Positions 17,340 through 38,224 are shown, numbered from the stretch's first letter. The stretch: DNA of 64,000 nt from an uncultured Candidatus Poseidoniales archaeon (GCA_902605365.1 CACLCM010000004.1:1471-65470); one strand, 5' to 3'. Program-made: numbers and translations. Notes: generated from the sequence alone by a model not told the origin.

Positions 17340-17423
17340 TGAGGCGAACACAGGGCCGAAGCCCTGTGTCCGCCAGAATCCCTCACATCTCAGTGAGGTG
17401 TTACGAACTCAAAGTCCGAAGTG
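17340..17423. repeat. 84-bp direct repeat, copy 2 (ORF end HFGL-stop plus two hairpins)
   Basis: Minus strand reads CAC TTC GGA CTT TGA, then hairpins CCUCAC/GUGAGG and GGCGGACACAGGGC-UUCG-GCCCUGUGUUCGCC. Confidence 0.95.
17343..17374 (-). terminator. 14-bp cUUCGg hairpin 3' of the basic-protein gene (3'-end or stability element)
   Basis: The stem is fully paired on the minus strand (one G-U) but has an A-C mismatch on the plus strand. No U-tract follows. Confidence 0.5.
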
Positions 17424-17756
17424 CTCACGTGCCACGGCTCTGAAATGAGACATGTGCGCACGGTGCCTAGCAACAAAGTGGTGTGGTATGACACGGTCCC
17501 ATGTTCCAGTAGTCTCGTTCCAGACCTTGTCCCATGTAAGCGTGGACAGTTCAGCCAGCAAACGCTCGTTGACCAGTTCTATCTTCTCTGGTGTCTCACA
17601 GCAAGGCTTGCGTGGACGTGAAAGAACCATCATAGCCGGTTTACGACTGGTTGCAACTCTACTCCTTTGTTTCTTACCTTCGTTCTTAGGATGGGTCTTG
17701 ACGACGCCTCCCGTTACACGGTCTTTGCCGTTGTGTGCTCTCTTGTGGTGCTTCAT
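17409..17756 (-). CDS. Small very basic His/Lys/Arg-rich protein
   Basis: 115-aa ORF with a purine-rich SD-like GGGAGAG, TATA box TTTAAGTA at 17883-17890 and a downstream hairpin. Confidence 0.65.
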   Translation of the reverse strand: MKHHKRAHNGKDRVTGGVVKTHPKNEGKKQRSRVATSRKPAMMVLSRPRKPCCETPEKIELVNERLLAELSTLTWDKVWNETTGTWDRVIPHHFVARHRAHMSHFRAVAREHFGL

Positions 17757-17860: not shown

Positions 17861-18018
17861 ATACTACTACTCGACGGCGTGTTACTTAAACCGAACGATG
17901 GGTATACCCTTTACTGCGTATCATTTTGTGATAAATTTAGAACGATTTTGCAAAAATCATTCAACCGGCACTATCATGAATGGGTTACCTTTCATGATTG
18001 GAGAGAGGAGCGCAGGTT

Positions 18019-19320
18019 GTGTCACAGATAGACGACGCCATAGACCAGTTGAATGGGCTCGATTCTTGGGCTCAGTGGGGTGTTGGCCTAGTTGCTACTT
18101 TGCTTACCCTATCCATCGTTCGTCTGTTGATGAAAAAGGTAGTTCTCGACATAGTAAAGAAGACTGCGTTTGATTGGGATGACAAATTATACTCACCCGT
18201 GACCAAGAGAATCTACATTTTCATCTTGTTCGCAGGTGTCAATCTAACCATGAATTGGGTAATGGAAGGCGATTCTTTAGTAGACTCCTTCAACCCGTTT
18301 TTCCAGGCCACATACATTTTACTTTCAACATCTCTAACCAGTGTTGTCCTTAGAACGTTGATTCCAGTAGTAATGGATAGATTCTCAGATCCATCCAGTG
18401 TTACAGTATCTGGCAGCAACTCCCTAATCATCTTCATATTCCGTGCAGCGGTTTGGTTTGGAGGATTGTACCTTGCACTGTCAGAACTCGGAATTGAATT
18501 GTTTGGAGTTCTAGCATCGTTAGCTGTATTCTCTCTAATTATTGGATTAGCAATGCAGCAGACACTGGGTAACATCGTTAACTCGTTCATGCTTGCTCTT
18601 GACCAGCCTTTCGAAGTTGGAGACAGAATCGAAGTTGAAGGCAAGATTGGTTCAGTAGTATCGGTTGGAATCCTTTCAACAAAAATCCTCACTCACGAAG
18701 AAAACCTAGTTGTAATTCCTAACAACAGTTTAGTCAATTCAACTGTAATCAACCATGCCCGTGGTGGTGGTGATGGAGTCGGACGCAGAATCTCCTTAGT
18801 CCAAGATATTGGTGTAGGCTATGGAGAAGATATCGCTCACGTAAAGTACACTGTGCTAAAATTGATGAGAGAATGTCCGTATGTAATTTCCAAACCAGAA
18901 CCACGTGTACTTCTGATTGAATTAGGTGAATACGCTAAAATCTTCAGAATGTATGGATGGGTAGAAGATTATTCAGATGAGTTCGTCGCTAGAGACTGGT
19001 TACTCAAGAATGTTGATGAAAAATTCTCTGCTGAAGGAATTGAAATACCATTCCCAACCGCTGTTGAAATATCTGGTAAGCAGAGTCCAGCATTAAACAA
19101 GAACCACAAAACTGCTAGTGTTCGAAAGGCTAGATTACAGATGGTTAAGGAAGATAAGCAATTGAACAAAGAACGTGCTGCTGCTAAAGAGGAAATTGAA
19201 GCGATCCATGAAAAGTTGAACGACCCAGAGTTGGATAAGAAGACACGAAATCTTCTCGAAGAAGACCTCAGAGAACTCAACAGTCTGTTGAGTATGTTCG
19301 AAGCCGGTGGCGATGATTGA
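18019..19320 (+). CDS. MscS-family mechanosensitive channel, paralog 1
   Basis: Several TMs, IGLAMQQTLGN, PFEVGDRIE, VIPNN, IGVGY, IEIPFP; C-terminal coiled coil. GTG start after GAGGAG. Confidence 0.92.
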   Translation: MSQIDDAIDQLNGLDSWAQWGVGLVATLLTLSIVRLLMKKVVLDIVKKTAFDWDDKLYSPVTKRIYIFILFAGVNLTMNWVMEGDSLVDSFNPFFQATYILLSTSLTSVVLRTLIPVVMDRFSDPSSVTVSGSNSLIIFIFRAAVWFGGLYLALSELGIELFGVLASLAVFSLIIGLAMQQTLGNIVNSFMLALDQPFEVGDRIEVEGKIGSVVSVGILSTKILTHEENLVVIPNNSLVNSTVINHARGGGDGVGRRISLVQDIGVGYGEDIAHVKYTVLKLMRECPYVISKPEPRVLLIELGEYAKIFRMYGWVEDYSDEFVARDWLLKNVDEKFSAEGIEIPFPTAVEISGKQSPALNKNHKTASVRKARLQMVKEDKQLNKERAAAKEEIEAIHEKLNDPELDKKTRNLLEEDLRELNSLLSMFEAGGDD

Positions 19321-19984
19321 AGGCGATAATATGTCCAATCGTTTAGCTGAACTCAATTTGCGATACATGCAAGTTGATTTTTCTTTAGAAGCCGGAAGCA
19401 ACCTACCTGGTTCTAAAATTCCTGATTCTTTCCCGATGTTGGAATTTATCACCATGCATGAAAGAACTGAACATGGCCTCATTTGCTACCTTAGACTGGA
19501 GTTCAATAATAAAGATAAACTCAAGGGAAATTACGGTGCAATCAAGATATTGGAAGTAATTTCACAAACTCCACATTCAGCATTGGTCAAGGCATTGGCA
19601 AGTGGCCCAGTTGCTATGATTTTTAGTAGACATGAAGATGCGTGGTGGATAAGCCCCACATATGTAAACGGAAATGGAATGATGATGACAATACGAGGCA
19701 CTACAGATGGATTGCGAAGAATTCGTACTGAATTATCGGCATTGATTGGCAATGGCTTTTCGGTTAAACTGGGTTCTGAATCTCTTCGAAGTCCGGAGTT
19801 CATTGACCTGCTTCCCCAAAAACAACGATTGGTTCTAGACAAAGCGATTGAAATGGGATATTATAGTCGACCACGTGGATGTACTCAAAGAGATATTGCT
19901 GAGGCTATGAACATCAAACAGGCAACTGTCAGCGAACATCTACAATCTGCTGAATCCAAGATTATCCATTCAATCGGAAAATAA
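19313..19984 (+). CDS. Bacterio-opsin activator-type (HTH_10) transcriptional regulator
   Basis: LPQKQRLVLDKAIEMGYYSRPRGCTQRDIAEAMNIKQATVSEHLQSAESKI. Confidence 0.88.
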   Translation: MIEGDNMSNRLAELNLRYMQVDFSLEAGSNLPGSKIPDSFPMLEFITMHERTEHGLICYLRLEFNNKDKLKGNYGAIKILEVISQTPHSALVKALASGPVAMIFSRHEDAWWISPTYVNGNGMMMTIRGTTDGLRRIRTELSALIGNGFSVKLGSESLRSPEFIDLLPQKQRLVLDKAIEMGYYSRPRGCTQRDIAEAMNIKQATVSEHLQSAESKIIHSIGK

Positions 19985-20043
19985 TCGGATTGCCCTATCA
20001 TGAATGGTGCCAAACCTATGCCTTGCGCACGCACACGCGAGGC

Positions 20044-23000
20044 ATGCGCCCAGTTTCACTACGCACATCTGCCCTAATGCTAACGCTAATCATGGTCTTA
20101 ATGCCCATGACTCCGTTTGCTGACCAGAACTTCAAATCAAGCGACTACGCCTCTGAAGGAACTGGTGAAGAACTCAATGAACAAATAATCTTGAGTGCAG
20201 GCAACACTGGAAACGCCGATTCTCTGGCGTTCGGTTTGCAATCCGGATGTGCTATCGGTGCATCTGGCAACATCAAGTGCTGGGGTGACGGTAGTGAAGG
20301 TCAACTCGGCCTGGGTAATACTCAGAACATTGGAGACAGTATTGATGAAACTGGCACTGATCTCCCGTTCGTAAGCCTAGGAACTAATGCATCAATAGAC
20401 AAGATTGTCATGGGCGAAGACCATTCTTGTGCACTATTCACAAACGGTTCAGTCAAGTGTTGGGGAGAGTCCTCAGTCCTTGGTTTGGGCTACTCATCAA
20501 GCAATGGTGGATTCGGTGACGGATACCTTGAGACCGGTGACACATTGCCATTCATGCAATTCCCAACTGGCCGAACAGCAACTATGCTAGAAGCTGGAAA
20601 GAGCCACACCTGTGCTGTTATGGACAACAACGACCTAATCTGCTGGGGAGACAACAGCAAGGGACAACTTGGCCTAGGTGACACAGATAAGAGAGGAGAT
20701 GCAACTGGCGAAATCGGAAGCAACTTCGCAGTCACAAGCGTGCCTACTGGCCGCACTATCGATAGTATGGCACTGGGCTGGGACCACACCTGTGTTGTCT
20801 GGGACAACTACAGTGTATCTTGCTGGGGAGGCAACGACAACGGACAACTCGGATTGGATTCAACTACCGACATCGGCGACGGTGCAGCAGAGATGGGAGA
20901 CAACCTAGATTTCCTAGGCCTTCCAGGAGCCGCTAGCGCTATCACTGCAGGTGATGGATTCACTTGTGCAATCATTGATGACAGTGGAAATGACAGAGCA
21001 TTCTGTTGGGGATTGAATGATTACGGACAACTTGGAATTGAATCTACGACTGATGTCGGAGATGGCTCTGGAGGTTCTATGTCATCTATCAGTAATGCTG
21101 ATTTGACTTATGAAGTTCTATCAATCGATGCTGGTGAAGACCATGTTTGTGCTATCGTTCAATTCGGTTCTTACAAACCAGTTCAATGCTGGGGTAATGG
21201 AGCAGATGGAAGGCTAGGATATGGTAGCCAAGATAACCGAGGAACTGGCCCTGGTTCTACAAATGGAATGGGCAGTAACCTGCCTTATGTTCGATTAACT
21301 TCTTCTAACACTCATTATGCATATAATGTGAATGATGTCGAAGTTGGCGCTGGAACAACCTGTGTGAGAGTAGCAAACGGATGGAATGACGTAATTTGTT
21401 GGGGAGACAACGGAATTGGACAACTAGGATACGGAGATACAGAAGACCGTGGAGATGGCCAAACCGATCTACCATTCACTACAGAATTAAATTTACAATT
21501 GGATGAAGAAGTCAAGGAGAATTCATGTAACATTCTAGGAGTTCCAGAACAAAGAGATGAACTTGACAAGAGGCTCGATTCAGATTCAAGCGACACTGGC
21601 GACTTGATTTCGATGGTCGAAATCCCAACTACTGGATGCCCTGCAATCGCATACTATGACTCTGGCAGTGGCAACCTCAAATTCGCTGCTTACGATAACG
21701 GAATGTGGTCTGTTGAAACACTTGGCAGTGATTCAGGAGTAATCGATGTTGACATCGTAATAGATGCTGATGGTAACCCTCACATTGTTCATATGACTTC
21801 AAGTGGCACAGACAGAGTTTCCTACACCACTAAAGTTAACGGAATTTGGACCGAAGATACCTTGACTGGCATGGATGGAACTGAAGAATTGTCATTATCT
21901 ATTGATTCAAATGGAGACTTGAGACTTCTAACTGTCACAACCACTGAAGTTGTTGAATCCACATGTTCTAGCAGTTGTTCCAGCATTTCAAACTGGGCAA
22001 ACAGCAACACTTTAGTTGCCACAGCGAGCATTGTTGACTCACATGGAGGCGATTCGGTTCACATCACATCCTCTGGACTGCATTACTCGGATTCCCTAGG
22101 AACTCCTGCTCTTGTTTCTACAGATGTTTCATCTGCTTACATGGCTGCTAGCATAGATGTTGCACCAGATGGAACAATTGCCGTTGCTCACACGAATGAT
22201 GTCTACCAAACATACTATTCTTCATGTTCAAGCGCTTGTACTACTGCATCTTCATGGAGTACTGAACTTGTTTCCAATGACACTTCTAGCCAAGTAGTAT
22301 TGCAATTTGATGGCGATGGAACGCCTTGGATTCTGCTTACCCACAACACAACTGGTGCAACCTTGTTCAGTTTGAACGATGGAGCATGGGATGGCCAAGC
22401 AATAACTGCATGGCCAGGTGCTGCTGATTCCTTTGGCATGATGATTAACTCTGCAGGATATGTATTCACATCTCTTCACTTGGTTAGCGCCGGTGAATTA
22501 TGGGCAGTAACTAACCCTACAGTTGCAGGCGCTGGTTTGTATGTAGATGCTGATGGAGATGGTTGGACTGGAATGCAAGAAATTTCTTGTGGAACAGACC
22601 GCATGGCTTCTTCATCCACTCCAGGTGATTTCGATGAAGATGGCCGCTGTGACAGTATGGATACTGTCAACAATTTACCTGCAGTAGGGGACTCAAGTGT
22701 TCTTACTCAAGGAGCAGACTTCGCATGTGCAATTCTTGCCAATGGAGGAATCGAATGTTGGGGTACTAATGCATATGGTCAACTCGGAGGATCTGCTTCT
22801 GGAGCATCATGGCCAACTGGCTTTGAAGCAGTGGACATAGATGCTGGAGAAAACCACGCTTGTGCACTTTCATCCGCTGGAGAGATTATGTGTTGGGGTA
22901 GAAACAACGCGGGACAGATTGGCACAGGAGCAACTTCAGCTCAAGAAAGCCCTACTGTCCTCACACTACCTAATAATCACCAAGCTGCTGACTTAGCAGT

Positions 23001-26000
23001 AGGTGCAAACCACAATTGTGTAACAACAACAACCAGCCAAATTTACTGCTGGGGAGACGGTGGAGATTCACAAACTGGAGAGTATTACGTCACAGATCCT
23101 TCTGCAGGATACGATGATGACTTTGAAGCAGCAACAATTGGTTCTGATTGGACATTAGAAGGTTCAGTTGGACAATTTGGTACTCAATGGGCACTAGACA
23201 CTACCGATGCATCTTCCGGCACTAACTCATTCAAATCAAGCGGCCATGCCTCTTCTTCCGACATAGGGTTTTCAATAACTCGAATGTTTACAAGTGGAGC
23301 TGTTTCTTTTGATTACAAAACAGATACATGTCCTAGCCTAAGCGGTTGTAGTGACCGATTGTCATTCTCTATCGATGGAGTTGAAATCAATTCCTCAAAG
23401 GGACAAATGAGCAATTGGGTAACATTCAACAGCAGCATTACCGCAGGAATGCACACACTTAGGTGGTCTTTCATCAAAGATGGGTCCTCTTCAAATGATG
23501 CAATGGGTGACTATGTCGCAGTAGATAATATACAAATTCGAACAGGATTTAGAATCGAAAGTGGAGGAGTCGTTGACTCTCCTGAAATTATGAACCTAGA
23601 TGCTGGCGGTCTAACCGATTCAATTGTTGCAGGAGAAAGGCATACTTGCGTAACTAACCACTTAGACGAAGTTTGGTGTATGGGTTACAACGGAGGAAGT
23701 AGCAAAATGGTTCTAGGAAATTCAAGTACCACTGCTACCAACTCTTCATCACTTGTTAAAGTCGATATTGGCTTTGGAACCGATTCAGTACGCTCCATAA
23801 CTGCAGGTTATGACACCTCTTGTGCTATCTTGGACAACAGCACACAAGCAGTATGTTGGGGACAAAGAAGCGACTGGAGTGATTCCGGTGCAACAACTAG
23901 ATCTGGAGAATTACTTCTAGGTTCATCCAGTCCATCCAACAGTGGAACTGTGGTTGACTTAGGCACAGCAGGCGACCGAATTTATTCAATCACAATGGGT
24001 GAATCTCATGCATGTGCTATTGTTGAGAACACTATCGAATGCTGGGGTGTAGAAGAGTCTGGTTCATTTGGACAAGGCTCTAGCACGACTGCAGCATACA
24101 GTACACCACAGACAATTTCTGTACCTTCTGGATTGACTGCAAAGCAGATTGTAATCGAGCATTCGATCGATTCAACATGTGGTGTCTTTGAAGACTCCGC
24201 TGGTGCTTCATCTGTAATTTGCTGGGGTGACGAAACTGCAGTAGGATATTCTGCTTCTAGTCCAGTTACTACACTTGCAGATTCACCAGTTGAAGATAGT
24301 AATGGCAACGAAATCATGCCTTCAGATGATTCACTCTCGCCTTATGATATCGTAGACTTGCAATCTGGTTCCTCCCACACATGCGCATTATCTCGTCAAG
24401 GATTGATTAAGTGCTGGGGAGGAAATCAACAGGCGCAATTGAGCATTCCTTTGACTTCAACACACCTTGGAGACGACATCAATGAGATGGGTGCTAATTT
24501 GCCATATATCGATTTAGGAGCAAATGTTACAGCAACACAACTGAGTGTAGGAAAATATCACAATTGTGTTATTGTGCAATCTAGCGTAGATAGTAGCATG
24601 AATGGAAAGGTCATGTGCTGGGGTTACAATCAGTACCGACAAACTCTCTACTCAGGTTCCTCTGCCAATCATGAACCTACACCGAAGATAGTCAACGCAT
24701 TTGGTAACGATGTGAGTAAGATTGCAGCGGCATCTGAAGTTACTTGTGCATTGAAAACAGATGGAGAAATATATTGTATGGGCCGTAATTCAGAGCGAGC
24801 AATTTCTTCGACAAGTTACAGCGCCGGACAAGGAACTGCGACTGCTCTAGAATACTCAACCTCTGGTAAATTCGTAGATTTGTATGCATCATCTCATAGC
24901 AACGGTGCAGTATGTGCAACTTCAGTCACTGGAGCGATCAAGTGTTGGGGTCAAGGCACATTCGTCTCTCAGACTAACTCAAATCCTGTTGTATTTTATG
25001 ACTTCAATGGAATCTTAAGTTCAGATTTATCTTTTGGAAATGACTTTGCTTGTATGGTTGTAGGCACAACAACTGAACTGCACGAAACTACTTCTCCGCC
25101 GACCAATGCAGGAGATATTGTATGCTGGGGATATGGAAGTTATGGACAATTAGGAACTGGTTCACAACCAAATATTGGTACCAATAATGACATACTAACT
25201 GCAAAACCAATTAATTTCAATGGAACACTAATGTCTGATGTCGAATCTGCTACGGACCACTCTTGTGCAATCTCCGATTCAGGAGAAGTGTATTGCTGGG
25301 GAAGGGGAACTTATGGCCGCCTTGGTTATGGAAATACTAACAGCTTAGGTGATAATTCAAACGAATTACCATTCCTAAACGCTGTCGATTTAGAAGGCAG
25401 TGCGAAATTACTTGCTTTAACAGAGACTTCGACTTGTGCTGCTATGCTCGACAATGAAGTCTACTGTTGGGGTTCTGGATCTAACGGAAGAACCGGTCAA
25501 GAACACACAGTCCACATTGGAGACCAATCTAACGAGATGGGAGTTAATCTCGCTCCAACCGATTTGCATATGCGTCCTACTGATTATGATTTAGATGGCA
25601 TCATTGACCACTGGGACACTGATGACGATGATGATGGAACCCTCGACGTGGATGATGATTTCAGATTAGACCCATGTGCAGTCCTCGATACTGATGACGA
25701 TGGAATGCCTGATTCAATTTATGCTGCTTGTTCAACCAATTTGATTGAAGATTTAGACGATGATAATGACAATTGGAATGATACAGATGAAGAAGCATGT
25801 ATCTCAAATTCAAAAGATTCTACAAGTGTACCTCGGGATCTAGATGGCGACGGTACCTGTGACTATGTCGACACCGATGATGATGGTGATGGTTGGAGTG
25901 ATGCTGACGAACAGGCTTGTGAGCGCAAGGAATGGGGAACAAGGAATGCTGCACAGGCATCCACTAGTTACGGTCAAAACTTGCATTATGATTCTGGCAC

Positions 26001-29000
26001 AGGGATTATATTCTTACCAAATGATGCTAATCATGAGTACCAAACCGTGGGAATTGACAATTATCAAAGGTACATGAAATCTTTTGCACATTCTCCTACT
26101 ATTTCACAGAACTCTGTAGCTTCAACTACTTACGGAAGTACTTCACAAACAGACTTTGATTACGAAAGTTATGGACAGGGTGCTTATATCGTGAATGACC
26201 ACCAATTGTACTACTTGGAATACGGTTCTGGCACTAATTTTGCATATACGAACCCTAGTTCTAATTTAGTCCACACATTCGATAACAATCATGATGATTA
26301 TTACCATGATATTTCAATTGCACCAGACGGAACAGTGTACATGACAGCCCACGATGAAATCGTAAGTATTTCTACAAGCAATGCCGTAACTGGAATTTCA
26401 TACCCTTCGGGTGTGAGCAATTCTACAACAAATGCAGATTACAAGCAAATTAGTGTAGATTCAAATGGTGATATCCATTTGCTGGCTTATCATGATTTAG
26501 CATTACGAATTTACACTTGGGTCTATGACACAAGTTCAAATTCATGGAATTCAGGTTTAGATGCAGGTTCGGGTTCAATAACAGATGTTGGTCCTGGCCG
26601 CTCTTCACTCACTGTTGATTCCAACACACAACCGCATATTGCATTCATGAAAGGCTCAAGTGCTACTGACACCAATTCATTTGTAACATACAGTTACTAT
26701 GACAATTCAGGTTCTAATTGGATTACAAGATTTACAGACCAAACACCATCTGGCTATTCAGGAGTCAGTTTGGAATTAGATTCAAACGATAATGTACATT
26801 TGGCATGGGTAGATAATGGTAACAGAACATTATATCACACTAAACTCTCTTCAATATCGAATGCTCAAACAACAACACAATTGATTCAGCATGGTAATTC
26901 GGGTTCAAGTTACTACCAGGGCCAATACGGCCACAAAAACCTCGAACTTGTTATTGGAGCAGGTGATGACCCTTGGATTATTTGGACTCCATATTCACGA
27001 AATAATGCAGTATACAATATGGTTGCACATTACGGTTCACCTATTGACAGTTCCTTGGACAGTACAGTTTATCCTGGCGATTATGATGGCGATGGAACAT
27101 GTGACATGCTTGAAGTTGCTACCTTAGATTATGGATATGATAGTCTAATCTTTGAGATGGAAATGGATATTTCATACGCACCTGAATATCCTGCAATGAT
27201 GCCAACTGGTGTTGCAATAAGCCCTTCACTACCATCCGGTTTGATCCTTAATACGACAACTGGAGAAATTAGTGGCCGTGTTACAACCAGTGATTTTGCT
27301 GGCTCTACTTACACTATTTCAACCACTTCTGGTGTTGAAGCATGGAGTACGAATGTAACAATCAAATCTACTATGGAAAATCCATTATACAACGGTTATG
27401 AAAACCTTTTCAACAATGGATACAGCGACCAAAGCTCTACTAAAACAGCCTTCGCTAGTAATGGTGAAATAGTCACTTTAGAGAGGTATACTAACACAAA
27501 TAGCATCACGATAGATGGTATTGCTGCAGGTGGAAATCATGACTCAAATGATATTGTTTTGAGTATGAGAGAGCCTACGGGAGATTACCTTTGGGCCAAG
27601 AGCATTAGAGGGAACTCATTCTACATCGGAGATGTTGACGTTGACAACAATGGTAACATTTACGCATTATTCCAAGCAACTGCTACAAGTAGTGACCCTG
27701 TTGAATTCAATTTCGATGGAGTGACGATTGACACTAACGGAAAAACAACTGTTATTCTTGCAAAGTGGGATTACTATGGAAATCTACAGTGGGCAATCAA
27801 TACTGAATCTACAGGTACTTCATCCACCGATTCAGCAATACTATCTGTAGGGGTTTCAGATGAAACTTCAGAAATGGACTTAGATAAGTCAACTGGTGAT
27901 GTTGCAATAGTCGCTACTGCAAAGACTGCCAATGATGATTTGAAGTTCGGCGGAATGCAAGTTGGACCATTTGGAACTTGTCTATCTACACAGCAACCTT
28001 GGGTTGCGAAAGTCAACACAAATGGGCAAGTACAGTGGACAGCAGTTGGTACATCTGACCCAACTCAGTGCCGTTACTCTCATCAACATAATGTTGTTTT
28101 ACATCATGATGGTTCCGTGACATCTGCAGGAAATGTTTGGACTAGTTCTGGAGGTTGGGATTATGACTTTGGTTCTGCTTCAGCATCTGCATCTTCATTA
28201 AGTTCCACCATTGGTTCATCTTGGATTGCACATACTGACAGTTCAGGAAATTGGGTTTGGGCCGAAAACGTGACAACTAATTCTAACTCGAATAACGCCA
28301 ATACAAATCATTACTTTACAATGGACAAGTTTAGCGACGATACTCTATTCTTCGCATATGTCAGTGACATTAATTACTGTACGAAAATTGAATTCGCTGG
28401 AAGCTCTTCCAGTTCGCTGCCGACTCAGTATCAGTCGTCTTGCTTACACGCAGCAACTATGAACCACACTACCAGTGATGTTATTTCACTTGAAACTCGA
28501 ATTGGCTATAGTGTCAATCATGATTCCTACAAGAGTGATTCGATCTATTCTGCAGTTGATTCTGACGATATTGCACATGTCTTAATCGATATGGATAGTG
28601 GTTACGACTTGAGGACCACTGGGTTTGACAAAGACCTAAACGTAGCATATGATGTTACTTCTACGTCTTGGTCTACTAACCACAGGACTACCGACTTTGG
28701 ACTCGATAATTCGGATTCAATTTACTTCACAGGTTATCATGGTTCTAAGTTCATGCACAGGACAGCATCATTGCTGAGTCAATGTGGCATTGAAAATGGT
28801 GTTTATAATTGTCCTGGCGTTGATAATTGGGACTCAGGTCAACAATCATTGTCAGCTTCCAGCAGCAACGTTAGACTCTACAGATTCTTTGGAGATTTCG
28901 ACCACGAGATAAACTACAACAGTCCGTCAGAAGGAACATCTATCACCTTCAAATTGATAGGTTTCCATGGCGCTTCACCAGCGACCTATACACTGAACAA

Positions 29001-32000
29001 TAGTTCAGGAATAACCAACAGCGCTGCTTTGCCTTGTGGACTAAATTTCAATCCAAACAATGGTGCCATAACTGGTTCTCCTACCAACGGATGTACAGAT
29101 ACGGCAAATGAGACCTATACAATTACTGTAAACCTCGGTTCCTCATCATACGCATGGAGTAGAAGTCAATCATTTGAGGTAACATTCGGAATAAGTCCTG
29201 CATTACCTGTTGTTTCATACAACCCTGCAGATACTACCCAGTCCTACACTAGAGGTGTGGCGATCACTCCAATTGCCCCAACTGGAATTACGAACAGTGC
29301 AAACCTGCACCACTTTACCACATATCCGCCTCTACCGGCTGGATTATCGGTAAATAGTACAGGACACATTACTGGTACGCCAACTGCAAACCAAAGCACT
29401 GCAACCTTCAAGGTGAAGTCATGTAACAGTTGGAATGTATGTAGTACGGGTGTTCCGTTTACAATTACCATTGACGAACCTGCACCTGTGATTTCTTACC
29501 CTGATTCAGAATATGAATTCTTCAAGGATGTACCAATCACTCCAGTCGTACCAACAAGTACTGGTGGAGTTCCTTCCTCATGGGAGGTATCTCCAGACCT
29601 ACCGACCGGTATGAGTTTGAGAGGCGATGGTGCAATCATAGGAATTCCATTCGTGGATTCACCTGCAACAAACTACACAATCTATGCTAACAATAGTGGT
29701 GGAACTGGAACTGAAGTAATTGAAATTACAATTAATGGAACTGGTGTATTCATCAATTACCCATACAATACTGCAGAATTGGCACAATACTCGCCAATGA
29801 TGGCTTTGTATCCATCTACATCTGGAGCTGCTGTTGTTTCATGGACTATTGAACCAGCACTACCTAGTGGCATATTCTTCGGAACAAACAATGGTACAAT
29901 TTGGGGAACTCCAAACACTCTGACCGAGAGTACTGTGTACACAATCAATGCAACAGGAGTTGAGGACTATGGAATCTCAACTGTGACCATATCTGTTCTC
30001 CTAGATACAGACCTGGACTCAATACCTGACGTCAATGATGACGATATTGATGGAGATGGCTGGTCCAACATTGATGAGATAAATTGTCAAACCGATGAAA
30101 TGGATGAATCATCCTATCCAAGTGACATTGACCAAGATAAGATCTGTGACCTGCTTGATACAAGTGACGACAGAGCAATCATTGTCATCTACATGAAGGA
30201 TAGCGTCGAATTAGCTAATGATTCAGCAATGAACTCACTAATTCCAATTACAGCAGGTGGAGACATTGACACTTGGGAGATTTATCCTGCATTGCCTCTT
30301 GGACTAGACTTCAATGGAACAATGCCTGGTCGCTCTACAACTGACACGGGTACAATTTCGGGAACGCCTACTGAACTCAGTGCTGCTACCGTATACACTA
30401 TCTGGGCTAACAACACAAACTCTGGACAGAGTGGTTCATTCCAGATTACTTTGAGTGTATTGCTCGATTCTGATGGCGATGGCACACCTGACGTCTATGA
30501 TGATGACATGGATGGCGACGGATGGTCTAACGAAATGGAGAATCTCTGTGGAGAAGACCCTGTTGATGCATCCAGCACTCCAATCGATACCGATGGAGAT
30601 GGTCTGTGTAATTACATCGACAGCGATGATGACAATGATACATTCATTGACACAGATGAAATCATGTGTAACTCTGATTCAGAAGACCAATTCTCTGTAC
30701 CAATCGATGATGACAACGATGGAATCTGTGATGCTCTGCAATCTGATAGAGACCTTGACGGATGGGCAGATGGCCCTGAAGAATCATGTGGCTCTGACCC
30801 AGATGATGCATCCAGTGTACCTGTTGATTCTGATGGCGACATGATCTGTGATTCACAAGATGATGACAGAGATGGCGATTATGTAGGAAACAACGTTGAC
30901 GACTTCCCGGATGACCGTTCTGCTTCAAAGGATACTGATGGCGATGGTAAGCCTGACTCACTGTCAGGAACATCAACATCAGACCCACAATTGGTTGAAG
31001 ACTTTGATGACGATGATGACAACTGGGAAGATTACAAGGAATCCGAGTGTGGTACAGACCCACTCGATGAATCTGACTTCCCTACTGACTCAGATGGAGA
31101 TGGTGAATGTGACGCTCTAGAAGACGACACTGATGGTGATGGATTTTCTGATGCTGAAGATGCATTCCCACTGGATAGTAGCGAATGGCTAGATACAGAT
31201 GGTGACGAAGTTGGTGACAATGCTGACGAAGATGACGATGGAGACACATGGTCTGACGCTGATGAAGAGAGATGTGGTTCTGACAGTCTTAATGCAGAAA
31301 GTATCCCAGAAAACATTGAGGATGAAACCACCTGTGTAACTGTCAAGACTGAATCTAAGGATGACGATGACGACAGCAGTTCCTCCACAATGTGGTGGAT
31401 TTGCGTCTGCTTCCCATTACTACTACTGCTGCTTCTGATACCACTAATATATTGGTCCAGAGAAAAGGGAGAGTCCCTAATGGTACTTGTTGGAATGAAG
31501 AACGGACCTGAACCTGAACACACTACTGCAAGGCCTAACTTTGTCAGTGGAAGTGGAACAAAGAACGACCCGTTCGTGCTTAAACCAGGACACGTCGAAA
31601 ACTTTGGAGACAGTTGTGAAAGTAAGGAAACTATCACTATCACAAACCTAGACCCTGAATCTCTGATAACAATCACAGATATGGCATCGCACACAAACCG
31701 TGGTCGATTCAATATGGATTCTATCCTAGTAGAAGGCAACTCTGATGATAAGGGCAGTGGCGCAATTGTCTTCACATTGAAGTTTGATGATAATGTAACT
31801 GAAGACGATGTTAGTGGAGTTTACAACGGCCAAATCAGAATCGGTAGTGCATCTGTTTACATCCTTTGGGAAGTAAAGGTTGGAGACCCTGAGGCCGATG
31901 AACTAGCAGAAGCTGATAGAAGAGCCAAGGAATTGAAGGCCCAAGAAGACGCTGAGAGGAAGGCAATCAAGGAAGCTGAAGCAAAGGATAAGGCTGACAA

Positions 32001-32856
32001 GAAGGCTGCTGAAGAGAAAGCCAAGGCTGAGAAAGAAGCCGCTGACAAGGCTGCCGCTGAAAAGGAAAAATCTGAGAAAGAGGCTGCTGAAGCAAAGGCG
32101 AAAGCCGAGATTGAGGCTGCTGATGCAATGGCAAAGGCTGAGAAAGAGGCTGCTGAAAAGAAACTCAAGGAAGCCGAAGAAAAAGCTGCTGCTGCTGAAG
32201 CAAAGGCAAAGGCTGCTGAAGAGAAGGCTGCTGCTGAAAAGAAAGCTCGTGAAGATTCAGAAGATGCTGCTCGTGTTGCTGCTGAAAAGGCCGCTCAAGA
32301 AAGGCTTGAACAGATGGAGAAAGAGATGGAAGAGCGCCGTAAGAAACTCGATGAAATGGATGAGGCTACTCGTAAGAAAGAGGAAGAACTCATACGTATT
32401 TCTGAGAAGGCTAAGAGCATCGATTTCACCACTCTTGGAGTTGCTGCTAGAAGCACTGTCTCCAAACCAGTTGAAAAGGGCGCTACTGAAGTCACAATGG
32501 GCGATACCTCTGAATTCGATGAAAGCGGCAGTGCTTGGGTCCAAGATGACGAAGGTGGCATGAACATCTCATGGACCGGAAAGACCGCAACTGCATTGAC
32601 CGGTGTTAAGGGCCTCAAGAGAGGCTTCGCCGCTGCAGCAATGATCACAGCCAGCGATGACCTACAAAGAATCAAGGGAGTTGGACCTTTCATCGAGGAT
32701 AAGTTGAATGCTCTTGGAATCTACACTTTCGAACAGGTTGGTAACATGACTTCAGAAATTGAAGAACAAGTTAACATCGCTATCGAATTCTTCCCTGGAA
32801 GAATTAAGAGAGACAAGTGGGCTAAGCAAGCAAAGAAATTCGCTGACCAAAAGTGA
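20044..32856 (+). CDS. Giant (about 4270 aa) membrane-anchored surface protein: RCC1 repeats, TSP3-like Ca repeats, Ig repeats, TM, coiled coil, C-terminal HhH domain
   Basis: Signal peptide; many H(T/S)CA..CWG.N..GQLG repeats; DxDxDG repeats; PALPxGL..G.ISGTP Ig repeats; TM WWICVCFPLLLLLLLIPLIYW; KAAAE-rich coil; DDLQRIKGVGPFIEDKLNALGIYTF. Confidence 0.9.
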   Translation: MRPVSLRTSALMLTLIMVLMPMTPFADQNFKSSDYASEGTGEELNEQIILSAGNTGNADSLAFGLQSGCAIGASGNIKCWGDGSEGQLGLGNTQNIGDSIDETGTDLPFVSLGTNASIDKIVMGEDHSCALFTNGSVKCWGESSVLGLGYSSSNGGFGDGYLETGDTLPFMQFPTGRTATMLEAGKSHTCAVMDNNDLICWGDNSKGQLGLGDTDKRGDATGEIGSNFAVTSVPTGRTIDSMALGWDHTCVVWDNYSVSCWGGNDNGQLGLDSTTDIGDGAAEMGDNLDFLGLPGAASAITAGDGFTCAIIDDSGNDRAFCWGLNDYGQLGIESTTDVGDGSGGSMSSISNADLTYEVLSIDAGEDHVCAIVQFGSYKPVQCWGNGADGRLGYGSQDNRGTGPGSTNGMGSNLPYVRLTSSNTHYAYNVNDVEVGAGTTCVRVANGWNDVICWGDNGIGQLGYGDTEDRGDGQTDLPFTTELNLQLDEEVKENSCNILGVPEQRDELDKRLDSDSSDTGDLISMVEIPTTGCPAIAYYDSGSGNLKFAAYDNGMWSVETLGSDSGVIDVDIVIDADGNPHIVHMTSSGTDRVSYTTKVNGIWTEDTLTGMDGTEELSLSIDSNGDLRLLTVTTTEVVESTCSSSCSSISNWANSNTLVATASIVDSHGGDSVHITSSGLHYSDSLGTPALVSTDVSSAYMAASIDVAPDGTIAVAHTNDVYQTYYSSCSSACTTASSWSTELVSNDTSSQVVLQFDGDGTPWILLTHNTTGATLFSLNDGAWDGQAITAWPGAADSFGMMINSAGYVFTSLHLVSAGELWAVTNPTVAGAGLYVDADGDGWTGMQEISCGTDRMASSSTPGDFDEDGRCDSMDTVNNLPAVGDSSVLTQGADFACAILANGGIECWGTNAYGQLGGSASGASWPTGFEAVDIDAGENHACALSSAGEIMCWGRNNAGQIGTGATSAQESPTVLTLPNNHQAADLAVGANHNCVTTTTSQIYCWGDGGDSQTGEYYVTDPSAGYDDDFEAATIGSDWTLEGSVGQFGTQWALDTTDASSGTNSFKSSGHASSSDIGFSITRMFTSGAVSFDYKTDTCPSLSGCSDRLSFSIDGVEINSSKGQMSNWVTFNSSITAGMHTLRWSFIKDGSSSNDAMGDYVAVDNIQIRTGFRIESGGVVDSPEIMNLDAGGLTDSIVAGERHTCVTNHLDEVWCMGYNGGSSKMVLGNSSTTATNSSSLVKVDIGFGTDSVRSITAGYDTSCAILDNSTQAVCWGQRSDWSDSGATTRSGELLLGSSSPSNSGTVVDLGTAGDRIYSITMGESHACAIVENTIECWGVEESGSFGQGSSTTAAYSTPQTISVPSGLTAKQIVIEHSIDSTCGVFEDSAGASSVICWGDETAVGYSASSPVTTLADSPVEDSNGNEIMPSDDSLSPYDIVDLQSGSSHTCALSRQGLIKCWGGNQQAQLSIPLTSTHLGDDINEMGANLPYIDLGANVTATQLSVGKYHNCVIVQSSVDSSMNGKVMCWGYNQYRQTLYSGSSANHEPTPKIVNAFGNDVSKIAAASEVTCALKTDGEIYCMGRNSERAISSTSYSAGQGTATALEYSTSGKFVDLYASSHSNGAVCATSVTGAIKCWGQGTFVSQTNSNPVVFYDFNGILSSDLSFGNDFACMVVGTTTELHETTSPPTNAGDIVCWGYGSYGQLGTGSQPNIGTNNDILTAKPINFNGTLMSDVESATDHSCAISDSGEVYCWGRGTYGRLGYGNTNSLGDNSNELPFLNAVDLEGSAKLLALTETSTCAAMLDNEVYCWGSGSNGRTGQEHTVHIGDQSNEMGVNLAPTDLHMRPTDYDLDGIIDHWDTDDDDDGTLDVDDDFRLDPCAVLDTDDDGMPDSIYAACSTNLIEDLDDDNDNWNDTDEEACISNSKDSTSVPRDLDGDGTCDYVDTDDDGDGWSDADEQACERKEWGTRNAAQASTSYGQNLHYDSGTGIIFLPNDANHEYQTVGIDNYQRYMKSFAHSPTISQNSVASTTYGSTSQTDFDYESYGQGAYIVNDHQLYYLEYGSGTNFAYTNPSSNLVHTFDNNHDDYYHDISIAPDGTVYMTAHDEIVSISTSNAVTGISYPSGVSNSTTNADYKQISVDSNGDIHLLAYHDLALRIYTWVYDTSSNSWNSGLDAGSGSITDVGPGRSSLTVDSNTQPHIAFMKGSSATDTNSFVTYSYYDNSGSNWITRFTDQTPSGYSGVSLELDSNDNVHLAWVDNGNRTLYHTKLSSISNAQTTTQLIQHGNSGSSYYQGQYGHKNLELVIGAGDDPWIIWTPYSRNNAVYNMVAHYGSPIDSSLDSTVYPGDYDGDGTCDMLEVATLDYGYDSLIFEMEMDISYAPEYPAMMPTGVAISPSLPSGLILNTTTGEISGRVTTSDFAGSTYTISTTSGVEAWSTNVTIKSTMENPLYNGYENLFNNGYSDQSSTKTAFASNGEIVTLERYTNTNSITIDGIAAGGNHDSNDIVLSMREPTGDYLWAKSIRGNSFYIGDVDVDNNGNIYALFQATATSSDPVEFNFDGVTIDTNGKTTVILAKWDYYGNLQWAINTESTGTSSTDSAILSVGVSDETSEMDLDKSTGDVAIVATAKTANDDLKFGGMQVGPFGTCLSTQQPWVAKVNTNGQVQWTAVGTSDPTQCRYSHQHNVVLHHDGSVTSAGNVWTSSGGWDYDFGSASASASSLSSTIGSSWIAHTDSSGNWVWAENVTTNSNSNNANTNHYFTMDKFSDDTLFFAYVSDINYCTKIEFAGSSSSSLPTQYQSSCLHAATMNHTTSDVISLETRIGYSVNHDSYKSDSIYSAVDSDDIAHVLIDMDSGYDLRTTGFDKDLNVAYDVTSTSWSTNHRTTDFGLDNSDSIYFTGYHGSKFMHRTASLLSQCGIENGVYNCPGVDNWDSGQQSLSASSSNVRLYRFFGDFDHEINYNSPSEGTSITFKLIGFHGASPATYTLNNSSGITNSAALPCGLNFNPNNGAITGSPTNGCTDTANETYTITVNLGSSSYAWSRSQSFEVTFGISPALPVVSYNPADTTQSYTRGVAITPIAPTGITNSANLHHFTTYPPLPAGLSVNSTGHITGTPTANQSTATFKVKSCNSWNVCSTGVPFTITIDEPAPVISYPDSEYEFFKDVPITPVVPTSTGGVPSSWEVSPDLPTGMSLRGDGAIIGIPFVDSPATNYTIYANNSGGTGTEVIEITINGTGVFINYPYNTAELAQYSPMMALYPSTSGAAVVSWTIEPALPSGIFFGTNNGTIWGTPNTLTESTVYTINATGVEDYGISTVTISVLLDTDLDSIPDVNDDDIDGDGWSNIDEINCQTDEMDESSYPSDIDQDKICDLLDTSDDRAIIVIYMKDSVELANDSAMNSLIPITAGGDIDTWEIYPALPLGLDFNGTMPGRSTTDTGTISGTPTELSAATVYTIWANNTNSGQSGSFQITLSVLLDSDGDGTPDVYDDDMDGDGWSNEMENLCGEDPVDASSTPIDTDGDGLCNYIDSDDDNDTFIDTDEIMCNSDSEDQFSVPIDDDNDGICDALQSDRDLDGWADGPEESCGSDPDDASSVPVDSDGDMICDSQDDDRDGDYVGNNVDDFPDDRSASKDTDGDGKPDSLSGTSTSDPQLVEDFDDDDDNWEDYKESECGTDPLDESDFPTDSDGDGECDALEDDTDGDGFSDAEDAFPLDSSEWLDTDGDEVGDNADEDDDGDTWSDADEERCGSDSLNAESIPENIEDETTCVTVKTESKDDDDDSSSSTMWWICVCFPLLLLLLLIPLIYWSREKGESLMVLVGMKNGPEPEHTTARPNFVSGSGTKNDPFVLKPGHVENFGDSCESKETITITNLDPESLITITDMASHTNRGRFNMDSILVEGNSDDKGSGAIVFTLKFDDNVTEDDVSGVYNGQIRIGSASVYILWEVKVGDPEADELAEADRRAKELKAQEDAERKAIKEAEAKDKADKKAAEEKAKAEKEAADKAAAEKEKSEKEAAEAKAKAEIEAADAMAKAEKEAAEKKLKEAEEKAAAAEAKAKAAEEKAAAEKKAREDSEDAARVAAEKAAQERLEQMEKEMEERRKKLDEMDEATRKKEEELIRISEKAKSIDFTTLGVAARSTVSKPVEKGATEVTMGDTSEFDESGSAWVQDDEGGMNISWTGKTATALTGVKGLKRGFAAAAMITASDDLQRIKGVGPFIEDKLNALGIYTFEQVGNMTSEIEEQVNIAIEFFPGRIKRDKWAKQAKKFADQK

Positions 32857-34154
32857 AACATATGGAATTAATTTCAGACTTGCTTGATTACTTAGATGGC
32901 TTGCCATTCGGTGCCAAAGTCGCTTTGTGTGTCCTTGGGATTGCGTTAGCATTAACTGGTGCTAGGTATGTTCTAATCAATCCATGGAAGGAGATTGTAA
33001 AAAGCAGTTCTGCAGGTTGGGACGATTTACTACTAGGACCTCTTGCCATTAGATTGAATCTATTCATAATAGCAGGAGGATGCCAATTATCTGCTAAATG
33101 GCTAATCGATTCAGATGTTGATTACAACACACTGCAACCATATTTTGGTGCGACTTACATAATGATTGCAACCTCGATTTCAAGTGTATCAGCAAAATAT
33201 CTGATGCCAGTAATCCTTGAACAATTTCAGAAAAAGGATGCAGTTACCGTTTCGGGAGGAAACCCAATCTTGGTAATTTGTACTCGTGCAGCACTATATT
33301 TTGTGGGCTCATATTTTGCTCTGATTGAACTTGATATCGATTTGTTCGGTATATTTGCATCATTAACATTGATTGCACTTATCATGGGAATTGCAATGCA
33401 GCAAACCATTAGCAACATTGCTAATTCATTCTTATTGGCAGTAGACCAACCATTTGAGGTAGGAGATAGAATAGAAGTTGGAGAAACATTGGGAACAGTA
33501 GTATCAATCGGTGTTCTGTCAACCAAAGTTCTTGACCGTGATGAAAGATTAGTAATCATTCCTAACAATACAATCGTATCTTCAGATATTGTCAACCACG
33601 CAAGAGGTGGTGGAGAAGGTACTGCAAGTCGTAAATCTCTGGTTATGGACATAGGTGTAAGTTATGATGAAGATGTTGACCATGTCAAGTACACTCTACT
33701 CACACTTGCTAGAGATTCTCCTTACTGCTTGGATAATCCAGAGCCAAGAGTTTTGGTAAACCAACTCGATGATTTCACTAAAAATTTCAGGCTTTTTTCA
33801 TGGATTGAAAACTACAATGAAGAGTTCATTGCAAGAGATTGGATTCTGAAATCAATCGATGAGAATTTCAACAGTGAAGGAATATCAATTTCATTCCCTA
33901 CAGAAATTGAAATCGATGGTGAGTTAGCTTCAATCGACCAGTCTGCTAAGGCTGAGCGTCAAAAAATTGCTCGTGAACAGATGGCTATCGAAGATCAGCG
34001 ATTCCAAGAAGATAGAGAAGCGGCACGTCTGCGCCTAAAGGAATTAGAAGATAAGATGCTGAAGGCTCAACTATCTGGTGGCAAGGTTTCAGATTTAGAA
34101 TTTGAAGCACAAGCTCTTGAAGCCGAGTTAGACGCCTATGAAAGCGAAGGCTAA
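32853..34154 (+). CDS. MscS-family mechanosensitive channel, paralog 2
   Basis: GIAMQQTISN, PFEVGDRIE, IIPNN, IGVSY, ISFP. Start overlaps the giant gene's stop (GTGA) or is the ATG at 32862. Confidence 0.92.
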   Translation: MKHMELISDLLDYLDGLPFGAKVALCVLGIALALTGARYVLINPWKEIVKSSSAGWDDLLLGPLAIRLNLFIIAGGCQLSAKWLIDSDVDYNTLQPYFGATYIMIATSISSVSAKYLMPVILEQFQKKDAVTVSGGNPILVICTRAALYFVGSYFALIELDIDLFGIFASLTLIALIMGIAMQQTISNIANSFLLAVDQPFEVGDRIEVGETLGTVVSIGVLSTKVLDRDERLVIIPNNTIVSSDIVNHARGGGEGTASRKSLVMDIGVSYDEDVDHVKYTLLTLARDSPYCLDNPEPRVLVNQLDDFTKNFRLFSWIENYNEEFIARDWILKSIDENFNSEGISISFPTEIEIDGELASIDQSAKAERQKIAREQMAIEDQRFQEDREAARLRLKELEDKMLKAQLSGGKVSDLEFEAQALEAELDAYESEG

Positions 34155-34171: not shown

Positions 34172-34786
34172 CTAAGACGCAGGGCCTCTGATTAGGAAGA
34201 CGACCCATAGTAGTGAGAGCAAGACTCCACAGATTTGGAAGATCCTACGTCCGTGCTTTTCATCACTGAATAGTCCGGATAGGCGGTCTCCGAAGAAGGT
34301 CCAAGCGATCATCGCAGATACGCAAGTTACTAGTGAAACCAAGATGATCACACTAATTCCAACAAAGCCACCACCCAGAGGTTCCATGTATTGACTCATC
34401 ATGATAATGATGAATGCCCATTCCTTACCGTTGACATACTGCATTGCAATACCGGTCTTGATTCCGAGTTTGCCTTCACTAGTTTCTGCTTCGATTTTGG
34501 AGGGGTCAATTCTGAACATTGCCACAACCATCGCACCAAGGAAAACCATTCCAATCCAATGAAGAGCAGTGAGTGCGATTTCATTTCCATCCAGAGAGTT
34601 GACGAGGAATCCGATTATGAGTTCAATCGAGACAAATCCAATTGCCATTCCGGTGATTAGTGTGATATTGGCCTTCTTTCCAAACATGCCACTGTGAGCA
34701 AATGATGTCAGAGCATTAGGCCCGGGAGTCAACAATCCCAAAGCAAGTAAGAGCAACAACTGAAGTAAAGCAGTTGTAGCATCCAT
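34172..34786 (-). CDS. LysE/RhtB-family exporter
   Basis: LTPGPN motif; about six TM segments. Confidence 0.78.
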   Translation of the reverse strand: MDATTALLQLLLLLALGLLTPGPNALTSFAHSGMFGKKANITLITGMAIGFVSIELIIGFLVNSLDGNEIALTALHWIGMVFLGAMVVAMFRIDPSKIEAETSEGKLGIKTGIAMQYVNGKEWAFIIIMMSQYMEPLGGGFVGISVIILVSLVTCVSAMIAWTFFGDRLSGLFSDEKHGRRIFQICGVLLSLLWVVFLIRGPAS

Positions 34787-38134: not shown

Positions 38135-38224
38135 GCTCCTACGGAGCATACATTCGTTCATCATGATACCGTTGTAATCAAAGGCCTAGAAGTGGGTGCG
38201 AGTTGTATGCGGCCCCGTTGGATA

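Follow-up and report, generated by a model that had tools for sequence, protein, structure and literature searches.

MscS-like channels with added C-terminal regulatory domains are known (bCNG channels, MscCG, Msy1/2), and tethered mechanotransduction is represented in eukaryotes by NOMPC and the hair-cell tip link. Marine Group II (MGII) archaea are among the most abundant archaea of the surface ocean and, to our knowledge, have no cultured member. Here we describe a locus in a 64,000-nucleotide (nt) stretch of DNA from an uncultured Candidatus Poseidoniales (MGII) archaeon (GCA_902605365.1, CACLCM010000004.1:1471-65470; the whole stretch is called the window, and positions are counted from its first nucleotide). 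The locus holds the genes for two MscS-like channels (MscS1 and MscS2), a helix-turn-helix (HTH) regulator and a giant surface protein, and the genes for channel and surface protein make up a single conserved module in which they are co-oriented and closely spaced. The component parts all belong to known families; the conserved pairing appears to be undescribed. Surface-contact sensing in prokaryotes is unsettled, and the locus offers a conserved candidate in which a dedicated MscS subfamily is paired with the largest surface proteins of these cells. The particle association of MGII is presented as a central open question in the accessible sections of Orsi et al. 2015 (PMC4511931).

Escherichia coli MscS and its paralog YnaI, which has five transmembrane (TM) segments, share with the archaeal channels the beta- and alpha-beta domains and a pore helix that carries a hydrophobic gate. 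In contrast to both, the archaeal channels add a C-terminal extension of ~80 amino acids (aa), a GGG(D/E)G loop insertion, a giant-gene neighbour and a regulator box of their own. An MscS core joined to a cytoplasmic part that is specific to the lineage and may influence gating recalls bCNG, MscCG and Msy1/2, although the archaeal extension is short and helical, belongs to no known ligand-binding family and is set apart by its genomic partner. NOMPC and the tip link resemble only the concept of a direct tether (discussed below); the channel families are unrelated. The last ~70 aa of the giant protein are homologous to the corresponding module of PhaH, of the extensions of NuoE, S2 and L21 and of protein-O, again with a long charged linker in both, but here the module sits on a C-terminally anchored archaeal surface protein, in one to three copies, behind an Ig-like domain and a beta-barrel.

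Analogies in Staphylococcus aureus and Pseudomonas are conceptual only. The accessible sections of PMC7442641 describe the gating of mechanosensitive channels by adhesion forces in S. aureus; the idea in common is that the force of surface adhesion gates such channels via the envelope or membrane, whereas the channels there are housekeeping ones under generic forces and those sections present no dedicated adhesin-channel module or local regulator. In the part of PMC10965496 available, the cfrX-cmpX unit of Pseudomonas aeruginosa contains an MscS homologue that affects biofilm and the response to shear. It is likewise a small regulated unit with an MscS homologue and surface-associated behaviour, yet it is bacterial, has a small-protein partner, is controlled by an extracytoplasmic function (ECF) sigma factor and is unrelated in gene content. 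The channel/surface-protein pairing was not found described in the openly searchable literature, and neither were the regulator box, the subfamily extension or the tail cassette beside a channel; subscription-only literature lay outside this search. The supplements of the MGII genome papers, Iverson et al. 2012 and Rinke et al. 2019, might mention these genes. The word stem ‘mechanosens’ is absent from the accessible text of Orsi et al. 2015 (PMC4511931).

MscS1, the HTH_10 regulator, the giant surface protein and MscS2 occupy 17998-34154 in this order, all on the + strand (Table 1). The initial annotation had described them as co-oriented and overlapping or near-abutting, with the MscS paralogs flanking the giant gene, and the gene coordinates confirm this: MscS1 and the regulator overlap by 14 nt, and the GTG start of MscS2 overlaps the TGA of the giant gene by 4 nt (GTGA). 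The same annotation had given the paralogs a common NHARGGG(D/E)G segment and a common C-terminal extension, both of which were recovered (see below).

The arrangement recurs in many relatives and is therefore more than chance. Across 61 related genomes, 33 MscS2-like places were found at a cut-off that we chose (E ≤ 1e-98; weaker rows are outside the count), and a large secreted or surface-protein gene adjoined all 24 places with enough flanking DNA (24/24). These 24 copies spanned two families and no fewer than three gene orders. In G009, the neighbour was an ORF with ELW-x-x-DG repeats that reached the contig end with no tail seen. The remaining 9/33 places were located at contig ends, five of them showing an HTH gene and then the contig end. 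Since linkage is conserved across Poseidoniales, the channel and surface-protein genes are not unlinked in relatives, and the synteny expected from the initial annotation was observed. A wider sample comprised the 80 best subfamily loci returned, including the closed MG-II chromosome CM001443.1. An HTH gene followed MscS in 56/70 of these loci with at least 700 nt downstream, and in 23/34 loci with at least 3 kb downstream the ORF that followed was very large or extended to the end of its contig. The 11 misses included four with split or second large tail-bearing genes further on, three with the tail gene directly upstream and four without a giant gene. Finally, 19 loci were hand-picked from the best ~150 order-wide matches, seven for odd open-frame length and twelve for long contigs. 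A gene bearing a cytoplasmic tail homologous to that of the giant protein adjoined MscS in 14 of the 19, and in L060 the neighbour was an Ig-repeat ORF with no detectable tail. The subfamily itself was present in 266/401 sampled genomes of the order at E ≤ 1e-40.

Linkage was maintained through rearrangement. Across different clades of MscS, and in each of the two large families, four gene orders were observed: a tail gene followed by MscS (genera of MGIIb, the L115-L134 clade and the MscS2 clade); MscS-HTH-giant (a large Poseidoniaceae clade); MscS then giant without HTH (G042, G155, G009, G210); and the two-paralog bracket seen in the window. These orders mapped to separate well-supported clades in FastTree and IQ-TREE phylogenies. 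At 21 distinct junctions, where tail gene and MscS gene shared a strand in every case, the distance from the tail-gene stop to the MscS start had a median of 18 nt and a range of -44 to +76 nt, and the 4-nt overlap was kept at 6/6 orthologous giant/MscS2 junctions, such that the junctions are operon-like. Neighbours by descent without functional relation would share gene order amongst kin, and one family supplied most of the loci examined. We nevertheless regard such neutral synteny as very improbable, because the genes stay linked across different orders and orientations relative to the giant gene, with surface proteins that span 925-5946 aa, the locus-specific box described below is shared, and the genes around the module differ from lineage to lineage (methylmalonyl-CoA mutase in the window, but topoisomerase IB, phosphatase and SelO in others). 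Judged from sequence, it is somewhat probable that channel and surface protein form a functionally coupled module under a local regulator.

The two-paralog bracket has a narrower distribution than the pairing. MscS1 and MscS2 fell into separate supported clades and were not sisters (the tree is unrooted within the subfamily), and because these clades are different and old the bracket is not a fresh tandem duplication. This placement rests on tree branch supports; an approximately unbiased (AU) test rejected ‘MscS2 clade + MscS1/HTH rows = one clade’ (p 1.5e-6), but the group was chosen post hoc with nested rows omitted and the result was not used. The bracket was found in 6/61 relatives (G000, G008, G015, G031, G032 and G036), all of one genus; the possibly heteromeric MscS channel that had been proposed would hence be confined to these genomes and was not supported.

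Contigs assembled from four marine RNA libraries (two studies) matched the locus at 90-99% identity and covered much of it. Some of them spanned a junction as individual contigs: X17 record 16 and X15 record 2 bridged MscS1/HTH, and X16 record 15 and X17 record 22 bridged giant/MscS2. These bridging contigs fit co-transcription and are weak evidence for it, a single transcript being unproven by contigs with possible DNA carry-over.

Conserved DNA upstream of both the channel and the giant gene points to common control. The near-palindromic 13-mer CTATCATGAATGG occurred twice as an exact word in the 1.45-Mb assembly (53 contigs, 60% complete), both times at the module locus, and the degenerate pattern CTWTCATRAHHGG occurred three times, all at the module locus. 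Reversed controls of the exact word and the degenerate pattern gave 0 and 1 matches, respectively. In five other Poseidoniaceae genomes, the share of box sites located at the module locus was 4/6 (a closed 2.06-Mb genome), 4/7, 4/5, 2/2 and 3/4. Amongst the best 80 loci, the box was present in the HTH-to-giant spacer of 42/51 related loci and, as the strict pattern, ≤120 nt upstream of MscS1 in 34/78; together these two promoter-side regions cover about 2% of the bases and contain 102/162 box sites. The box was conserved across genera, within Poseidoniaceae, and many of its versions across loci were the perfect palindrome CCTATCATGATAGG. It is probably the operator of the dimeric HTH_10 regulator encoded in the locus; on this reading MscS1-HTH and giant(-MscS2) would be two jointly controlled transcription units. 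The local regulator postulated in the initial annotation is thus backed by a locus-specific conserved box 5′ of both MscS1 and the giant gene, and the predicted operator would define a small regulon.

The regulator scored 63.6 bits against HTH_10 (Pfam cut-off 23.1; aa 171-220), and its C-terminus superposed on sigma region-4-type HTHs (Z about 8). In an AlphaFold2 (AF2) model (pLDDT 82), the N-terminal domain (aa 15-162) resembled a tandem ferredoxin/ACT-like fold, which is typical of small-ligand sensors. A structural match of this domain was Ta1207 (5m86_A; Z 9.5, root-mean-square deviation (rmsd) 3.4, 141 aligned; VIA-align), modestly above background, and ACT-type matches (Z about 7) were within the background of Z 7-8. 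Foldseek returned nothing for the model at E ≤ 1e-3, and a sequence search of the PDB returned nothing credible. This architecture raises the possibility that MscS1 senses tension or a solute and controls the HTH regulator, by sequestration or through an ACT-bound solute, and that the regulator in turn switches the giant gene. The 14-nt MscS1/HTH overlap, the HTH gene after MscS in 56/70 loci, the ligand-binding type of the N-terminal domain and the same box 5′ of both units would all agree with such a sensor-regulator pair. We consider it quite unlikely, however, as the MGIIb arrangements, the L115-L134 clade and the MscS2 position have no HTH gene whilst the MscS-giant linkage persists. Because linkage holds where the HTH gene is absent, the regulator appears to have joined a pair that was already in place.

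Both channels look functional, with the MscS pore kept and the gate hydrophobic. MscS1 and MscS2, 44% identical over 428 aa, scored 67.3 and 66.8 bits against the beta-domain (MS_channel_2nd, PF00924; cut-off 20.2) and 37.1 and 53.9 bits against the alpha-beta domain (MS_channel_3rd, PF21082; cut-off 21). A profile of the subfamily matched E. coli MscS (2vv5_A) at E 3.5e-32 with residues 71-280 aligned, and YnaI chains at E about 1e-14 to 1e-15. The gate positions, which we take to be L105/L109 in the E. coli numbering, were L and I in MscS2 (alignment to 2vv5_A) and L and L in MscS1 (via the subfamily alignment). Five hydrophobic segments were counted by eye from the sequence of the channels, and membership of the MscS family predicts a heptameric tension-gated channel. 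In the N-H-A-R-G-G-G-(D/E)-G segment, the residues N, A, R, G, G, G and G were invariant in 14 aligned subfamily members, and, set against E. coli MscS, the segment amounts to an insertion of 4 residues. The extension continues as helix for ~80 aa past the MscS fold in both paralogs, beyond the part covered by solved MscS structures, and was missing from the subfamily alignment solely in L040, a row that ends early at a local-alignment edge.

An ordinary osmotic valve would also retain the MscS core and gate; its production along with attachment proteins would reflect the osmotic or ionic shifts that cells meet on particles or in blooms. Some subfamily members do reside among housekeeping genes. 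The assembly encodes a further canonical MscS (369-aa open frame, different contig). We hold this co-regulated but mechanistically separate role to be improbable; it leaves unexplained why adjacency, and even stop/start overlap, was retained through rearrangements in two families, and why a C-terminal extension found in this subfamily alone is conserved.

The giant protein has the layout expected of a C-terminally anchored surface protein. Its N-terminus from M19 (ATG 20044) is signal-peptide-like, as judged by reading the translation, and the ectodomain includes RCC1-like (E 8.5e-121) and He_PIG Ig (E 2.1e-26) domains (Pfam). These domain types, taken with the adhesion domains of MGII treated in the accessible sections of PMC4511931, suggest an adhesin-like ectodomain that may bind particles or cells. 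The sole strongly hydrophobic segment is preceded by acidic and followed by R/K-rich sequence and then by a 466-aa tail, such that the C-terminal side is predicted to be cytoplasmic. A single TM helix with a KAAAE stretch on the predicted cytoplasmic side had been noted at the outset, and both features were present (TM aa 3802-3822; KAAAE-rich aa about 3965-4135).

The AF2 model of the tail (pLDDT 73 overall) starts with an unstructured juxtamembrane stretch carrying the conserved motif G-P-E-P-x-x-T...G-x-G-T-x-x-D-P-F. The Ig-like domain that follows was conserved in all 29 aligned tails and resembled ASH/PapD-like domains weakly (structure alignment Z 6.2-7.8; Foldseek E 4.8e-3 to the HYDIN PapD-like domain; ESM Atlas 0.85), and its sequence had no credible match in the PDB. 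For the tail model overall, Foldseek gave no match at E ≤ 1e-3 and ESM Atlas scores were all <0.9. The spacer is 50-68% charged and 0-14% hydrophobic, with 6-10 i/i+4 pairs per 28 aa, and was modelled as long lone helices (pLDDT 43-85); the KAAAE stretch hence looks like a single-alpha-helix-type spacer, not a heptad coil. The small beta-barrel matched phage tail-tube insertion domains (9n71_B; Z 10.8, rmsd 1.8, 75 aligned; VIA-align). The terminal helix-hairpin-helix (HhH) module matched the C-terminal domain of 8yy9_O (E 1.6e-12) and 9wqv_a (E 4.3e-12) in phmmer, and thus has homologues at the C-terminal ends of protein-O from Dinoroseobacter and of a complex I subunit. Partial NCBIfam matches (NuoE PRK12373, S2, L21, PhaH) were below cut-offs, because only the C-terminal part of these whole-protein models was covered, and Pfam gave sub-threshold HhH matches alone for the tail. 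According to the accessible part of a review (PMC13052382, citing Salinas et al. 2023), the HhH end of Caulobacter PhaH binds DNA non-specifically; the function of the protein-O and NuoE module is called obscure by the authors in the available sections of PMC12079452. Amongst 36 homologous tails, length varied from 255 to 677 aa with 1-3 HhH modules each, and there are several tail-bearing genes per genome, most without an adjacent MscS gene. The tail is a general cytoplasmic cassette of MGII surface proteins, and this architecture may connect the cell surface to the interior.

These features bear on a direct tether, in which the giant tail would bind the MscS extension or cytoplasmic cage and a pull on the ectodomain would gate the channel mechanically. 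Neighbouring genes whose start and stop codons overlap typically encode subunits of a single complex, and both partners have conserved cytoplasmic parts, namely the Ig-like domain (29/29 tails) and the MscS extension. Against this, the spacer is low in hydrophobicity, variable in length and not a heptad coil, it ends in a module whose sole tested relative binds DNA, many tail genes have no MscS gene adjacent and a neighbouring tail gene is likewise missing for some MscS genes of the subfamily. Overall, we rate a direct tether as unlikely. Given its variable length and HhH-module ending, the tail is a poor coil-coil partner for the MscS tails, and the coiled-coil link to MscS envisaged in the initial annotation was not borne out. 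The membrane-proximal Ig-like domain is a better candidate than the spacer for any channel contact. In a more ambitious version, the anchor and Ig-like domain would dock onto MscS so that load opens the channel directly, and the 25-nm spacer and HhH module would reach the nucleoid. This contact-sensing machine is a similarly doubtful proposition; if true, surface contact, ion flux and chromosome would be physically linked in a prokaryotic machine without described counterpart.

Within the coupled module, the mechanism that we favour, tentatively, passes through the membrane. The C-terminally anchored giant protein would be inherited and expressed with its dedicated subfamily of 5-TM MscS-like channels, and the one-component regulator (ACT-like sensor plus HTH_10) would bind the box and so link the two units in their expression. 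Shear, or contact with cells or particles, would load the long ectodomain, the loaded ectodomain would strain the membrane around its single-helix anchor, and this strain would gate the co-expressed channels through the lipid bilayer. The resulting flux of ions or solutes may act as signal or relief, whilst the ligand-binding domain of the regulator would set module dosage. The parts of the module can be tested heterologously, without culture of the organism.

Several observations weigh against the coupled module. Related genomes are not independent observations, and many assemblies break inside the giant gene. Tail-bearing surface genes outnumber MscS genes, and several lie without an adjacent MscS gene (for example G033:C12, G015:C21, G036:C5 and family f2; fetched DNA or coordinates), so the tail is not dedicated to the channel. 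Conversely, 4/19 hand-picked loci have MscS among housekeeping genes, and L055, L057, L061 and L078 are subfamily members in such surroundings. MscS2 is missing in the close relatives G007 and G002, and in one sample contigs from two RNA libraries connect 32828 with 34260, representing a close relative without MscS2; MscS2 is therefore a presence/absence polymorphism. The strict box pattern was found upstream of MscS1 in just 34/78 loci, the rest having diverged, contigs cannot prove one transcript, and RNA libraries can hold DNA. Lastly, both the binding of the regulator to the box and the dependence of channel activity on the surface protein are extrapolated from sequence.

Table 1 Features of the MscS-HTH-giant-MscS locus, with positions counted from the first nucleotide of the window.
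Feature	Position	Strand	Description
Box copy 1	17971-17983	+	CTATCATGAATGG, 36 nt 5′ of MscS1 GTG 18019; candidate operator or promoter element
Box copy 2	17989-18001	+	CTTTCATGATTGG, beside copy 1, 18 nt 5′ of GTG 18019; candidate operator or promoter element
MscS1	18019 (GTG, probable) or 17998 (TTG) to 19320	+	440 aa from TTG; 5-TM, C-terminal helical extension ~80 aa
HTH regulator	19307-19984	+	225 aa; overlap with MscS1 of 14 nt
Box copy 3	19995-20007	+	CTATCATGAATGG, 37 nt 5′ of likely ATG 20044 of giant gene
Giant gene	19990 (TTG; likely ATG 20044, M19) to 32856	+	4288 aa
Ectodomain	19990-31392	+	RCC1-type propellers, He_PIG Ig domains, acidic D-x-D-x-D-G repeats (translation, Pfam)
Transmembrane helix	31393-31455	+	aa 3802-3822, sole strongly hydrophobic segment (hydropathy scan)
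Ig-like beta-sandwich (‘tailA’)	31573-31884	+	tail aa 40-143, membrane-proximal; AF2 pLDDT 80-86
Charged Ala/Glu/Lys helical spacer	31888-32418	+	tail aa 145-321, ~175 aa, single-alpha-helix-like
Small beta-barrel	32437-32664	+	tail aa 328-403; AF2 pLDDT 83-90
HhH module	32686-32850	+	C-terminal helix-hairpin-helix, PhaH / NuoE-extension / protein-O type
MscS2	32853 (GTG) or 32862 (ATG) to 34154	+	433 aa; second 5-TM MscS-like channel, helical extension

A GGAG-rich stretch precedes the GTG start of MscS1 at 18019. The ORFs that flank the module, at 15498-17303 (+), 17409-17756 (minus) and 34172-34786 (minus), matched no Pfam family at E ≤ 0.001; the last of these, a 204-aa ORF 3′ of MscS2, was considered as a second HTH paralog and ruled out. 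Beyond it, 34841-38164 (minus) encodes a 1107-aa protein of IcmF-like architecture, in which methylmalonyl-CoA mutase is fused to a B12-binding domain and a MeaB-type GTPase. Two other very long ORFs are located in the window, at 51963-56657 (+; 1564 aa) and 59668-63975 (minus; 1435 aa).

Variation around the channel gene was also apparent in other genomes. At L044:7539-8867 and its equivalents in L045-L050, a topoisomerase IB gene follows MscS with a single in-frame stop between them. The ‘900-aa open frames’ of MGIIb were accordingly ruled out as tail-MscS fusions, these being MscS and then the same-frame topoisomerase IB gene. L051 (closed MG-II genome, 1020000-1039999) and L052, from other Poseidoniaceae genera, have several tail-bearing surface genes in a row, and L052 has a second HTH_10 paralog after the giant gene; box sites also lie ahead of these additional genes. 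At L062:9400-10998 (minus; G133), in one of the four hand-picked loci with housekeeping surroundings, a subtilase gene is located directly upstream of MscS and its product has one C-terminal TM helix and a short cytoplasmic tail with a SAP domain, i.e. an exported protein with a DNA-binding-type cytoplasmic end adjoining a subfamily MscS. Seven proteins of 1200-1800 aa that lack a TM segment (P0115, P0119, P0131, P0135, P0144, P0150 and P0183) also contain the Ig-like family of the tail, close to their N-terminus. Several of these have Lcl_C domains and a conserved ‘MALTRAQLL’ start, and their appearance suggests fibres, either viral tail fibres or secreted ones.

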